64,000 nucleotides of DNA, taken from Candidatus Micrarchaeota archaeon (GTDB lineage Archaea > Micrarchaeota > Micrarchaeia > Anstonellales > Bilamarchaeaceae). The notes under the pieces were generated by a model. The model searched no databases and was not told the origin of the DNA. It saw only the letters and a program-made list of their open reading frames with translations. The stretch covers positions 96,001 to 160,000 of the forward strand of contig JBDRCX010000006.1 in assembly GCA_043821365.1 (NCBI GenBank). The letters run 5' to 3'. A program made the translations under genes and the position numbers. Shown here in pieces: positions 12,594-28,196 of this stretch (the stretch's first letter is position 1; each line of letters starts with the position of its first letter).

Positions 12594-12648
12594 TTTGTTT
12601 ATCTATAGATAATGAGGTGCGGAACATTGGTTCCGCAAGTGAACAAAA
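12594..12648. repeat. Intergenic palindromic element related to the RNase P RNA P3 module
   Basis: GAGGTGCGGAACATTGGTTCCGCAA (12614-12638) matches 15851-15875 at 22/25 positions. It is flanked by TTTGTTT...GAACAAA, as the RNA modules are. Confidence 0.7.
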
Positions 12649-12700
12649 ATGGATTGGAATTTTTTGGAAAAAATTTCAAGTATTGAAAATGTGATTTTCA

Positions 12701-14020
12701 ATGGATTTAGGTAAAAAACTCAGAGAAGCATTGGCAAAACTCACCAATAGGCCATATGTTGACGAAAATGATGTCAGAGCATTGATAAAGGACCTTCAAC
12801 GGGTGCTGATATCATCTGATGTCAGTGTAAAGCTAGTATTTGCCTTATCAAAAAGAATCGAAGAAAGAGCATTAAAATCAAAAAAGATGGACGCACTTAC
12901 ACTCAAGGAACACGTCACTAAAATTGTCTATGAAGAACTTGTGTCATTAATGGGAGAAAGTTACACTGCAAGATTGGATAAACACAAAATCCTCATGTCT
13001 GGACTTTATGGTAGTGGTAAAACAACCTCTTGCGCCAAGCTTGCACATTTCTATAAAACAAAAGGCTTGAGTGTTGGTCTTGTGGCAGCAGATACTGATA
13101 GACCTGCAGCACAGGAACAATTAGAACAGCTTTCCAAAACAGTTGGAACTGCTTTTTATACGATTAAAGGAGAGAAAAACCCGGCAAAAATTGTAAAAGA
13201 TGCGCTGAAAAAAGCAAAAGAAGACGTAATAATCGTAGACTCTGCTGGAAGAAGTGCATTTGACGGACATTTGGTAGAAGAACTAAGGGAAATTGCAGAT
13301 GTATTAAAACCAGAAGAATGTTACCTTGTTATAAGTGCTGATCTTGGACAAATTGCAGGCAAACAAGCAACAGAATTCAATGCAGCTGTTCCTCTTTCTG
13401 GTGTTTTTGTTACCAAGATGGATGGTTCAGGTAAAGGGGGGGGAGCATTAAGTTCAGTTGCAGCATCCAATGCAAAAATTTCATTTGTTGGTATTGGGGA
13501 AAAATCATCTGACATTGAAGTGTATAATTCTGAAAAATTTGTTGGTAGGCTTTTGGGTGTTCCTGATATCGGAGCCTTAATGGAAAAGATAAAAGAAATA
13601 TCAAAAGAAACTGACCTTAAAAAAATAGAATCAGAAGAACTTACAATTGAATCTTTTTATGAACAATTGAAAGCAGCTAAAAAACTAGGTCCACTTAGTA
13701 GTGTTTTCTCAATGATAGGTGCTGTTGATGTACCAAAAGAAATGGTACAACAAAGTGAGGACAAGCTGAAGAAATTTGAATGTATGATAAATTCGATGAC
13801 AAAGCAGGAAAAAAAAGATGCAAAGATATTGAAAAATAATGCAAATAGGATAGCAAGGATTGCAAAAGGAAGCGGTTGTACAGAAAAAGAAGTCAGAGAA
13901 TTTTTATCTCAATTTGAAAAGATGGAAAAAATGATGAATATGTTTAAGCACAACCGTGGATTTAGAAAAAAGATGGAAAAAATGATGCAAGGCGGAAATG
14001 TTAATCTTCCTAACATGTAA
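12701..14020 (+). CDS. srp54: Signal recognition particle protein SRP54
   Basis: GLYGSGKTT, DTDRPAA, DSAGR, TKMDG..GGGALS, and a C-terminal M domain (IARIAKGSG). Confidence 0.96.
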   Translation: MDLGKKLREALAKLTNRPYVDENDVRALIKDLQRVLISSDVSVKLVFALSKRIEERALKSKKMDALTLKEHVTKIVYEELVSLMGESYTARLDKHKILMSGLYGSGKTTSCAKLAHFYKTKGLSVGLVAADTDRPAAQEQLEQLSKTVGTAFYTIKGEKNPAKIVKDALKKAKEDVIIVDSAGRSAFDGHLVEELREIADVLKPEECYLVISADLGQIAGKQATEFNAAVPLSGVFVTKMDGSGKGGGALSSVAASNAKISFVGIGEKSSDIEVYNSEKFVGRLLGVPDIGALMEKIKEISKETDLKKIESEELTIESFYEQLKAAKKLGPLSSVFSMIGAVDVPKEMVQQSEDKLKKFECMINSMTKQEKKDAKILKNNANRIARIAKGSGCTEKEVREFLSQFEKMEKMMNMFKHNRGFRKKMEKMMQGGNVNLPNM

Positions 14021-14738: not shown

Positions 14739-15752
14739 ATGGTTCAGACAGTCAAATCCTTATATCAAGCAGTGAACGATAGACGTTCAGTACGAGTCTT
14801 TACAGATAAACAAATTGAACCAGAAAAATTACAAAGAATACTAGAAACAGCAAGAAATGCACCACAAATATCACCAGGCTCATATTCTATTACTGTAGTT
14901 CAAGACCCTAAACAAAAGGCAGATCTTCGAGCAGCATCATTACGTCAAAAATACGTAGAAACTGCACCAACAGATCTTGTTGTTTTAGTAAACAAATATG
15001 ATTTACCTAGTATTCAAGATGCAACAACTGCAACTGCCTATGCTGATCTTACAACTCATGTTTTAGGATTGGGAAGTGTTTGGATAGGTGCATTCCACCC
15101 AGATCAAGTAGGTCAGATTGTAGGTGCAAGACCAAGGCAGGTTCCTGTAGCCATTCTATGTTGCGGTGAACCTGAACCAAGAGAAAATGTTCATAGAACT
15201 CCAAGGAGACCATTAGATGATTTGATAACTGTTATCGGTCGTGACGGTCATTCGATTCCTTATCATGGGATTGGAAGCACAATGCTAGGGAGCAGACTAT
15301 TTTTTGATGTTATAGAACGTAGAATTTCAACAAGAAAGTTTACTGGGAAACCAATCGAAGAAGCCAAAATACACAGAATTATTGAATCTGCAAACAGAGC
15401 TCCGTCTGCAGGAAATCTACAAGCATATGATTTGATGCTGTTTACCGACCCAACTTTGATGAAGATATTTATGAGAACTGCGCTTGGCCAAAAAACAAAT
15501 GGAGAAGGAGCATTGCTGATAGTTATGGCAAATCAGCTTAGATCAAGTATAAAATACAGAGAAAGAGGAGCTGAACTTTATTGTTTACAAGATGCAACAA
15601 TTGCAGCAGCATATGCTGATTTGGCAGCACAAGATGTTGGACTTGGAACAAACATGATTACCAAATTTAATATCCCAAATGTAGCAGCTTTGATTGGAGC
15701 AAATAGATACCAGATACCAATTGCAGTTCTAGCAATTGGGAATATTGCATAA
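14739..15752 (+). CDS. Tandem nitroreductase-family protein
   Basis: Two units: RRSVRVF...APQ...LGLGSVWIGAF and RRISTRKF...APSAGNLQ...VGLGTNMI. Confidence 0.85.
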   Translation: MVQTVKSLYQAVNDRRSVRVFTDKQIEPEKLQRILETARNAPQISPGSYSITVVQDPKQKADLRAASLRQKYVETAPTDLVVLVNKYDLPSIQDATTATAYADLTTHVLGLGSVWIGAFHPDQVGQIVGARPRQVPVAILCCGEPEPRENVHRTPRRPLDDLITVIGRDGHSIPYHGIGSTMLGSRLFFDVIERRISTRKFTGKPIEEAKIHRIIESANRAPSAGNLQAYDLMLFTDPTLMKIFMRTALGQKTNGEGALLIVMANQLRSSIKYRERGAELYCLQDATIAAAYADLAAQDVGLGTNMITKFNIPNVAALIGANRYQIPIAVLAIGNIA

Positions 15753-15784
15753 ATTTTTATTAACAAATTAGCATAATATTGATT

Positions 15785-16171
15785 GGTGAGGGGTAAACTG
15801 GTACGTTTTTTGTTTGTTTGAGGGGGCACGCCCCCTCGTACCCCCGAAAGGAGGTGTGGAACCTTGGTTCCACAAACAAACTAAAATGAGGAAGTTCTGC
15901 CCTCTGCGAGGATAACAGGCTTTAAGGGCTTGAGAGTGCTACAGAAACGATACTTTTTTGTTTAAGGGCTGCCCATTGTACCCCGTTCGCGGGGTGCGGG
16001 GTGTCCCAGCAAACAATAAAAGATGCAACGCGTACTCTTTTATCCAATGACAGAGCAAGGCCTTTGGGCCGCTTTCTGAAATTCGCAAGAATTTTGGAAC
16101 CTTTTGATCTAGTAATAGATCAAATTGAAGTCAAATCCAGTAAATACAAAAGGCAGACTATTCCCCTCACC
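15785..16171 (+). ncRNA. rnpB: RNase P RNA (archaeal)
   Basis: P1: GGTGAGGGG (15785) / CCCCTCACC (16171). P2: ACTGG/CCAGT. CR-I: GAGGAAGTTCTGCC (15888). CR-II: ACAGAAAC. CR-III-like: GATGCAACG. CR-IV-like: AGTCAAAT. CR-V: TACAAAAGGCAGACTA, pairing as P4. Further helices CTCTG/CAGAG, GGATAA/TTATCC and AGAGTGC/GTACTCT. TATA-like TTTATTAA about 25 nt upstream. Confidence 0.92.
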
Positions 16172-16284
16172 TTCTACTTTTTAGGAAAAAGTGGAGTAAA
16201 AACTGATTATAAAAGAACCAAAAAATTCAATATTTAAATCTTCCACTACATTAAAGTTTCTAACACATTAAAGAGGATAGAAAT

Positions 16285-27976: not shown

Positions 27977-28125
27977 GTGATAATTTTGTTGGGAAACATT
28001 AATAAAGTGATTATTTCTAGTAAAATGTGATAAGCAAGGAACGTTACTCGCTATGAATAAATTAGCCGCATTTTTGTTCCTATAGTGTTCACCGCGAGCC
28101 GAATGGCAAGCACAGCAAACAAAAA

Positions 28126-28196
28126 TGCGACCGCCGGGAATTGAACCCGGCCCGCGAGATTGGCAATCTCGAATCATACCGATAGACTACGGTCGC
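28126..28196 (-). tRNA. tRNA-Gly (GCC), intron-less, CCA not encoded
   Basis: GCGACCG/CGGTCGC acceptor stem, CGAGA-TTGCCAA-TCTCG anticodon arm, CCGGG-TTCAATT-CCCGG T arm; 71 nt. Confidence 0.97.

Follow-up and report, generated by a model that had tools for sequence, protein, structure and literature searches.

Hairpin cassettes of a dispersed family in RNase P RNA helices P3 and P12 of a Candidatus Bilamarchaeum species

Expansion of a peripheral helix of RNase P RNA by repeated sequence is known from heterocyst-forming cyanobacteria, where repeats of the short tandemly repeated repetitive (STRR) type occur in helix P12 (Vioque 1997, Nucleic Acids Res 25:3471; ref. 108 in PMC2858038). As far as these accounts describe it, that case concerns a bacterial type-A RNA in which tandem heptamers occupy P12 only, the repeat being one that occurs genome-wide, that sits in a peripheral helix treated as dispensable and that varies between related strains. 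The RNase P RNA studied here shares the last three properties but differs in that the RNA is archaeal, that the inserts are inverted pairs of hairpin cassettes, that both P3 and P12 are affected, and that the units are otherwise located at tRNA trailers and gene ends; heptamer-like repeats resembling STRR do occur in the same genus, in P3 of the genomes G010, G012 and G045. A second comparable case is the P12 expansion of Thermodesulfatator indicus (PMC9945441), which is likewise lineage-specific, structured and about 70 nt long, but which is bacterial and is excised post-transcriptionally, and for which the abstract mentions no link to dispersed repeats.

Repeat-built expansion of RNase P RNA is, in other words, a known kind of event, and the archaeal case is new, extending such expansion segments to Archaea and to DPANN; what sets it apart is its connection with tRNA trailers, as well as the module that occurs inverted in a sister lineage. 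Well-studied archaeal RNase P RNAs have longer P12 helices with K-turns, in contrast to the genus considered here, in which the otherwise stub-like P12 lacks the length for K-turns. Like archaeal type-A RNase P RNA (RF00373), the present RNA has a P1–P4 core with conserved joining regions, together with the pairings of P2 and P4. A full-text search of the literature on RNase P RNA of DPANN or Micrarchaeota found no structural description.

The gene was analyzed within a window, by which we mean the whole stretch of 64,000 nucleotides of DNA under study, from a Micrarchaeota genome that we denote G000; other genomes of the genus are given G numbers, loci or metagenomic lineages L numbers, and contigs C numbers. 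At the Rfam gathering threshold tRNA alone was matched in the window, with no match to RNase P RNA. Using a relaxed Rfam search, we found that RF00373 matched the plus strand at the gene locus with E=5.6e-9; the match reached 37.5 bits, the gathering score being 84, and is the one RNase P RNA match in the entire 1.2-Mb assembly (36% GC, 87% complete). The extent of the gene, 15785-16171, was set by P1 as read from the sequence. The alignment spanned model positions 1-288, with its 5' end misaligned into the P3 expansion, and the score falls so far under the cut-off because of the two insertions described below. Over 200 columns the core of the RNA is 77-85% identical to that of genus members, several of which exceed the Rfam cut-off (e.g. 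G008 with 107 bits and G024 with 97.5 bits), and the core motifs that were checked (P1, P2, the P4 strands, J3/4, J11/12 and J15/2-type) are collinear with those of accepted members. Since helix P2 furthermore carries compensatory changes among the aligned relatives, the core is conserved and the gene is present as a single copy, the gene looks functional; the whole RNA, when folded and compared with shuffled sequences, gave z=-6.2. In an order-level sample 17 of 41 RNase P RNAs pass the Rfam cut-off, and claims of missing RNase P RNA in such genomes hence need care. Two open reading frames overlapping the gene, at 15578-15829 on the minus strand and 16001-16237 on the plus strand, were taken as spurious. 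Directly 3' of the RNA, at 16173-16196, lies an AT-rich hairpin (stem ...CUUUUU, loop AGG, AAAAAG...) of a type also seen 3' of the gene in G002, G019, G022, G024 and L108, with covarying outer stems, which may constitute a 3' terminal hairpin or a terminator. The features of the locus are collected in Table 1.

Table 1. Features of the RNase P RNA gene and related cassette units. Positions refer to the window; MFE, minimum free energy fold.
Feature	Position	Strand	Evidence
Archaeal-type RNase P RNA gene (387 nt)	15785..16171	+	RF00373 match, core collinear with relatives, P2 compensatory changes
P1	15785-15793 paired with 16163-16171	+	read from sequence
P3 stalk, U-rich 5' strand; first part ancestral U6 stem, rest T-rich arm of inserted unit	15804..15819	+	MFE; alignment with G015a and G024
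P3 hairpin 1, 7 bp G-run/C-run, loop CACG	15820..15837	+	unit profile E=1e-7; descriptor match
P3 hairpin 2, ACCCCC paired with GGAGGU, loop GAAA	15840..15855	+	MFE
P3 hairpin 3, 7 bp, loop CUUG; in antisense unit copy	15856..15873	+	31/31 trailer match; minus-strand profile match E=4e-4
P3 stalk, A-rich 3' strand	15874..15888	+	MFE
P12 expansion; stalk 15953-15963 with 16010-16022, GC-rich interior 15966-16007	15953..16022	+	80% identity to G024 P12; present in L108
Family member in SRP54 leader: SD-like GAGGTG, hairpin, A-rich tract	12612..12640	+	19/21 positions match P3 hairpin 3
Unit HMM match, G000 P3, 5' half			E=1e-7
Unit HMM match, G000 P3, 3' half		minus	E=4e-4
Unit HMM match, G024 P12, 5' half			E=6e-4
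Unit HMM match, G024 P12, 3' half			E=3e-3

For comparison we used 40 species representatives of the genus (Candidatus Bilamarchaeum, Micrarchaeota) together with 3 metagenomic lineages. The usual P3 in the genus is a hairpin of about 12-20 nt, often with a U6/A6 stem, and the usual P12 is a 10-nt stub; relative to these, the G000 RNA is longer by about 70 nt in P3 and by about 62 nt in P12. A 54-nt distal arm is a further feature, which G000 shares with G015a and G001. A sequence-only reading of the locus had depicted P3 and P12 as each capped by a similar GC-rich module of three hairpins, and the hairpins are present in the sequence as that reading wrote them. For P3 all three could be located, with the corrections that the second and third, as drawn there, overlap by 2 nt and that the second has a C.A mismatch. 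The GC-rich character was likewise confirmed, as the stretches inside the AU-rich stalk arms have 57% GC in P3 and 61% in P12, against 36% for the genome. Three hairpins are predicted for the P3 module by the MFE structure and by each suboptimal one up to 3 kcal/mol above it, giving a four-way junction composed of the stalk plus the three hairpins. Hairpin 1, together with the T-rich arm and the downstream GTACCCC, makes up a sense copy of a unit that is dispersed in the genome (see below), and hairpin 2 is the pairing site between two such units in inverted order.

The fold of the P12 module is less clear-cut. Its sequence in G000 contains G-runs and C-runs, two of each, besides an ACCCC/GGGGU pair, so that two pairing schemes are possible, and a rod (-32.5 kcal/mol) was calculated to be more stable than three hairpins (-26.3 kcal/mol). 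The L108 P12 is also a rod in its MFE structure, and the G024 orthologue forms a three-hairpin four-way junction in the MFE structure and in the suboptimal structures within 3 kcal/mol. In the three P12 sequences the G-runs and C-runs suit the rod and the three-hairpin fold equally, so that covariation does not discriminate between them, and RNAalifold run on two P12 modules returned a meaningless consensus. Judging from these predictions, we regard the three-hairpin fold as firm for P3 and as ambiguous, with the rod favoured, for P12 of G000. The terms triple hairpin and multi-branch, as used in the sequence-only reading, accordingly describe P3 well but are doubtful for P12 of G000, where the rod is the better fold and the match to the family profile is non-significant.

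The irregularities of the two stalks bear on whether the modules might be transcribed and then excised, leaving a shortened or fragmented RNase P RNA in the way reported for T. indicus, whose P12 expansion is excised in vivo (PMC9945441). By inspection of the predicted folds we found a 2x1 internal loop in the P3 stalk and, in the U-rich/A-rich P12 stalk, a 1-nt bulge as its only irregularity, but no bulge-helix-bulge motif (two 3-nt bulges, 4 bp apart) in either, which argues against such processing; in spite of the bacterial precedent we find excision of these modules quite improbable.

That the two modules resemble each other, as the same reading had proposed, was upheld beyond chance expectation. 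Their global alignment scored 53, compared with 32.6 +/- 6.2 in shuffles that kept the T-rich, GC and A-rich segments separate (p=0.0016), the interiors alone gave p=0.011, and the order of parts is the same in P3 and P12.

By listing hairpins made of a G-run and a C-run, we could define a unit layout consisting of a T-rich tract of TTTTGGTTTGTTT type, a GC hairpin, and then xxACC(C/U)C, and both RNase P modules are inverted pairs of this unit. A strict descriptor (a T-rich 13-mer, a hairpin of 5 or more bp, no fewer than 4 of them G-C pairs, and ACC(C/U)C within 5 nt) found 13 copies in G000, compared with 0, 0, 0, 2 and 0 in Markov shuffles. Both P3 halves are among the 13, one on each strand, and P12 of G000 fails the strict descriptor, its hairpins being too short. 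We also built a unit HMM from 13 units outside RNase P and ran it over 41 RNase P genes (38 kb, both strands). Each half of the G000 P3 module was matched significantly, as was each half of the G024 P12 module (Table 1); the P12 halves of G000 itself, with E=1.5 and 4.3, were not significant. The P12 module of G000 is nonetheless placed in the family because it is 80% identical, over 96 nt, to its G024 orthologue. The profile and the structural descriptor took the place of a covariance model, as a MAFFT alignment of the units put the stems out of register. A T-rich 11-mer tried alone as a marker was uninformative, with 438 matches. A fixed-gap pattern searched across the genus gave 3 matches in G000, 2 sites in G024 and 1 each in G006 and G011, being too narrow and matching one of the G024 sites in two registers, and the first sequence pattern that was run on the metagenomes gave no match. 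No module was found in the assembled parts of 16S or 23S rRNA or in the SRP RNA.

Comparing the modules with G000 by BLAST, we found a 31/31 match of the P3 3' half, plus partial collinear matches elsewhere. The perfect match is between window positions 15851-15881 and the reverse complement of a tRNA trailer at C6:400996-401026. The tRNA gene in question (C6:400700-400990, plus strand; acceptor strands GGGCCCG/CGGGCCC) is broken up by several hairpin inserts, and neither Rfam nor ARAGORN detected it. Two further tracts of this kind exist among the relatives, since the P3 5' half of L108 is identical over 28/28 nt to another tRNA trailer of G000, and 21 nt of the P12 3' half of G024 recur unchanged in the SRP54 leader of the same genome, located 2 kb upstream. 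Such perfectly identical tracts indicate likely source loci. They also weigh on the notion that the resemblance is convergent, with GC hairpins on AU stalks having arisen in place by slippage and selection for stability. It is true that G-runs and C-runs easily form hairpins, and many members of the genus have unrelated expansions in P3 or P12, but identical tracts of 31/31, 28/28 and 21/21 nt with distant loci, profile E-values from 1e-7 to 3e-3 and the identical order of parts in the two modules make convergence hardly credible, and the possibility that the tracts are assembly errors is countered by the L108-type gene having been assembled identically from three different samples.

The dispersed units mostly keep to characteristic positions, as determined from an ORF map, a tRNA map and reading of the loci. 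Forward units begin 0-8 nt past stop codons (C6:720519, 489918, 430217, 339948 and 280803) or directly after tRNA 3' ends (C6:463304, C3:58025, C6:400991, C6:321370 and C6:566913), with the tRNA identities at unit loci taken from RF00005 matches, from ARAGORN with introns allowed and from sequence reading. The relaxed Rfam search and ARAGORN gave no match at dispersed loci, because long inserts interrupt the tRNA genes. Reverse units present an SD-like GGAGGU, a hairpin and an A-rich tract before a start codon, as in the SRP54 leader and the leader at C3:124501. At the orthologous sites of G024, which comprise two gene leaders, one of them that of SRP54, and tRNA trailers, the element is kept, often with a different hairpin, and the hairpin in the SRP54 leader of G024 is indeed unlike that of G000. 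Seen from sequence, this suggests that the cassette units are functional cis-elements whose stems are exchanged between copies, and our guess would be that they act at transcript 3' ends. Cassettes at tRNA trailers, at stop codons and in SD-bearing leaders form a hitherto undescribed set of elements in Bilamarchaeum that merits a study of its own. As a separate observation, the trailer of tRNA-Gly(GCC) (tRNA at 28126-28196, trailer at 28072-28125, both on the minus strand) is a TTTTTGTT...AACAAAAA stalk around a GC-rich interior, laid out as the RNase P modules are but with a different interior.

Turning to the distribution of the modules, the nearest named member to G000 is G024, 'uncultured archaeon LFW-283_2', which one source names Candidatus Bilamarchaeum dharawalense. 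Among the 40 genus genomes and 3 metagenomic lineages, only G000, G024 and L108 carry the P12 module and only G000 and L108 carry the P3 module; L108 is a metagenomic species whose gene was obtained as identical assemblies from three samples. The three lineages with the P12 module have SRP54 proteins that are about 90% identical, and G015a, L116 and L117, having neither module, have SRP54 86-88% identical to that of G000. The SRP54 tree lacks resolution among these near relatives, with module-bearing lineages neither grouped nor split as a clade, and the order of gains and losses given below was for that reason inferred by parsimony. The P3 module of L108 aligned with that of G000 with a score of 92 and 66 identities as the reverse complement, compared with a score of 56 and 55 identities in the same sense, from which it follows that the module lies in opposite orientations at one site in two species. 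The proposal of two insertions from one family of structured elements is supported by these comparisons, most relatives being without the modules, other copies existing in the genome and the profile matches being independent; the opposite view, that the modules are ancestral and invariant with no other copies, disagrees with the data on every count. Domestication of the insertions, which the sequence-only reading also proposed, is conjectural. Other members of the genus have unrelated repeats in P3 and P12, including heptamer-like ones, suggesting that the tips of these helices are general landing sites in the genus. In G010, G012, G043 and G045 (L039, L020, L070 and L086) P3 is expanded by short GTTTCC(R)G-like repeats, and in G012 and G003 similar short repeats run on downstream of the RNase P gene, which recalls the cyanobacterial STRR.

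Taking these results together, we consider it likely that the P3 and P12 modules are cassettes that were copied into a working RNase P RNA and were then kept as tolerated decoration. In such a scheme, intergenic cassettes would have been copied into the RNase P gene by gene conversion or template switching, with short homology provided by the AU-rich arms and by the U6/A6 stem present in the ancestral P3. Two units placed head to head would let the T-rich arm pair with the A-rich arm to form a stalk, the middle hairpin would arise from ACCCC paired with GGGGU or with GGAGGU, and with each unit retaining its own hairpin the product would be a four-way junction or, alternatively, a rod. The P12 module would have come first, in an ancestor shared by G000 with B. 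dharawalense and L108, and the P3 module later; either two acquisitions or an inversion between the arms of the module in a single lineage would explain its two orientations. The copies would keep exchanging sequence with trailers and leaders. Folding on their own and pointing away from the catalytic core, the modules would most likely stay in the RNA as decoration that is tolerated. With a short helix, one module, both modules and an inverted module all found among near relatives, the process appears to have been caught in the act, and it would show how a catalytic RNA can grow by the copying of local repeats.

Insertion by a transposase rather than by recombination, with the modules being a non-autonomous transposable element of MITE- or PATE-like type, would account for several of the same properties, namely the dispersal of the family in the genome, the inverted T-rich and A-rich arms that are complementary and form the stalks in the manner of terminal inverted repeats, and the opposite orientations at one site in two species; G000 moreover encodes one Y1 (IS200-type) transposase and TnpB-like ORFs. 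We nevertheless judge a transposon origin to be distinctly unlikely, because neither insert has a target-site duplication or flanking direct repeat, the GC hairpins adjoining the sole Y1 gene are unrelated in sequence to the unit family, the copy number is low (about 13-20), and many copies occupy conserved orthologous positions directly at gene ends.

The retention of units at the orthologous sites of G024 points to functional cis-elements rather than selfish DNA, and a function also within RNase P is therefore possible. The modules could serve as a platform for a trailer-binding protein (Sm-like, Alba or L7Ae-type) or engage in antisense pairing with pre-tRNA trailers, which would be in line with the units being conserved at orthologous tRNA trailers and leaders, with one half of each module being antisense to trailer units, including the perfect 31-nt match, and with a P12 module that persists in three lineages and retains its pairing potential. 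Several properties speak against it. Most of the genus, including G015a, L116 and L117, lives without both modules; the antisense half is already base-paired inside the module; and the free swapping of hairpin sequences, along with a P3 module found in either orientation, argues against a sequence-specific site. As for an L7Ae-type protein, the P12 interior (15966-16007) contains zero GA dinucleotides, which makes a K-turn, with its tandem sheared G.A pairs beside a 3-nt bulge, impossible there. A functional role of the modules is in our view unlikely, and the more specific idea that the expansions base-pair with the 3' trailers of pre-tRNAs, or bind a protein in common with these trailers, is very improbable. 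Were either the case, the processing of the 5' and 3' ends of tRNA would become linked, in an organism with inserts crowding its tRNA genes, and this would represent a guide-like recruitment of substrate that is so far undescribed for RNase P.

Some additional observations were made at other loci and in other genomes of the set. The G015 bin holds two different RNase P RNA genes, on contigs C61 and C66, and has a contamination estimate of 6%, so that it is probably a mix of two organisms. At G015:C61:6115-9228 and at G041:C80:3366-6485, the open frame containing SRP54 is about 1050-1080 aa long and the match to SRP54 falls into two parts, which suggests an insertion of intein size. In G000 the start region of SRP54 (window 12640-12710) is about 56 nt longer than that of G024. 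The extra sequence separates two ATGGATT motifs, of which the second is the real start, and it resembles an AT-rich hairpin insert located precisely at the start codon and flanked by a direct repeat of 7 nt. Finally, the 23S rRNA match at C4:16589-18045 covers 721 model positions in 1457 nt, from which this 23S gene carries an insertion of about 730 nt.
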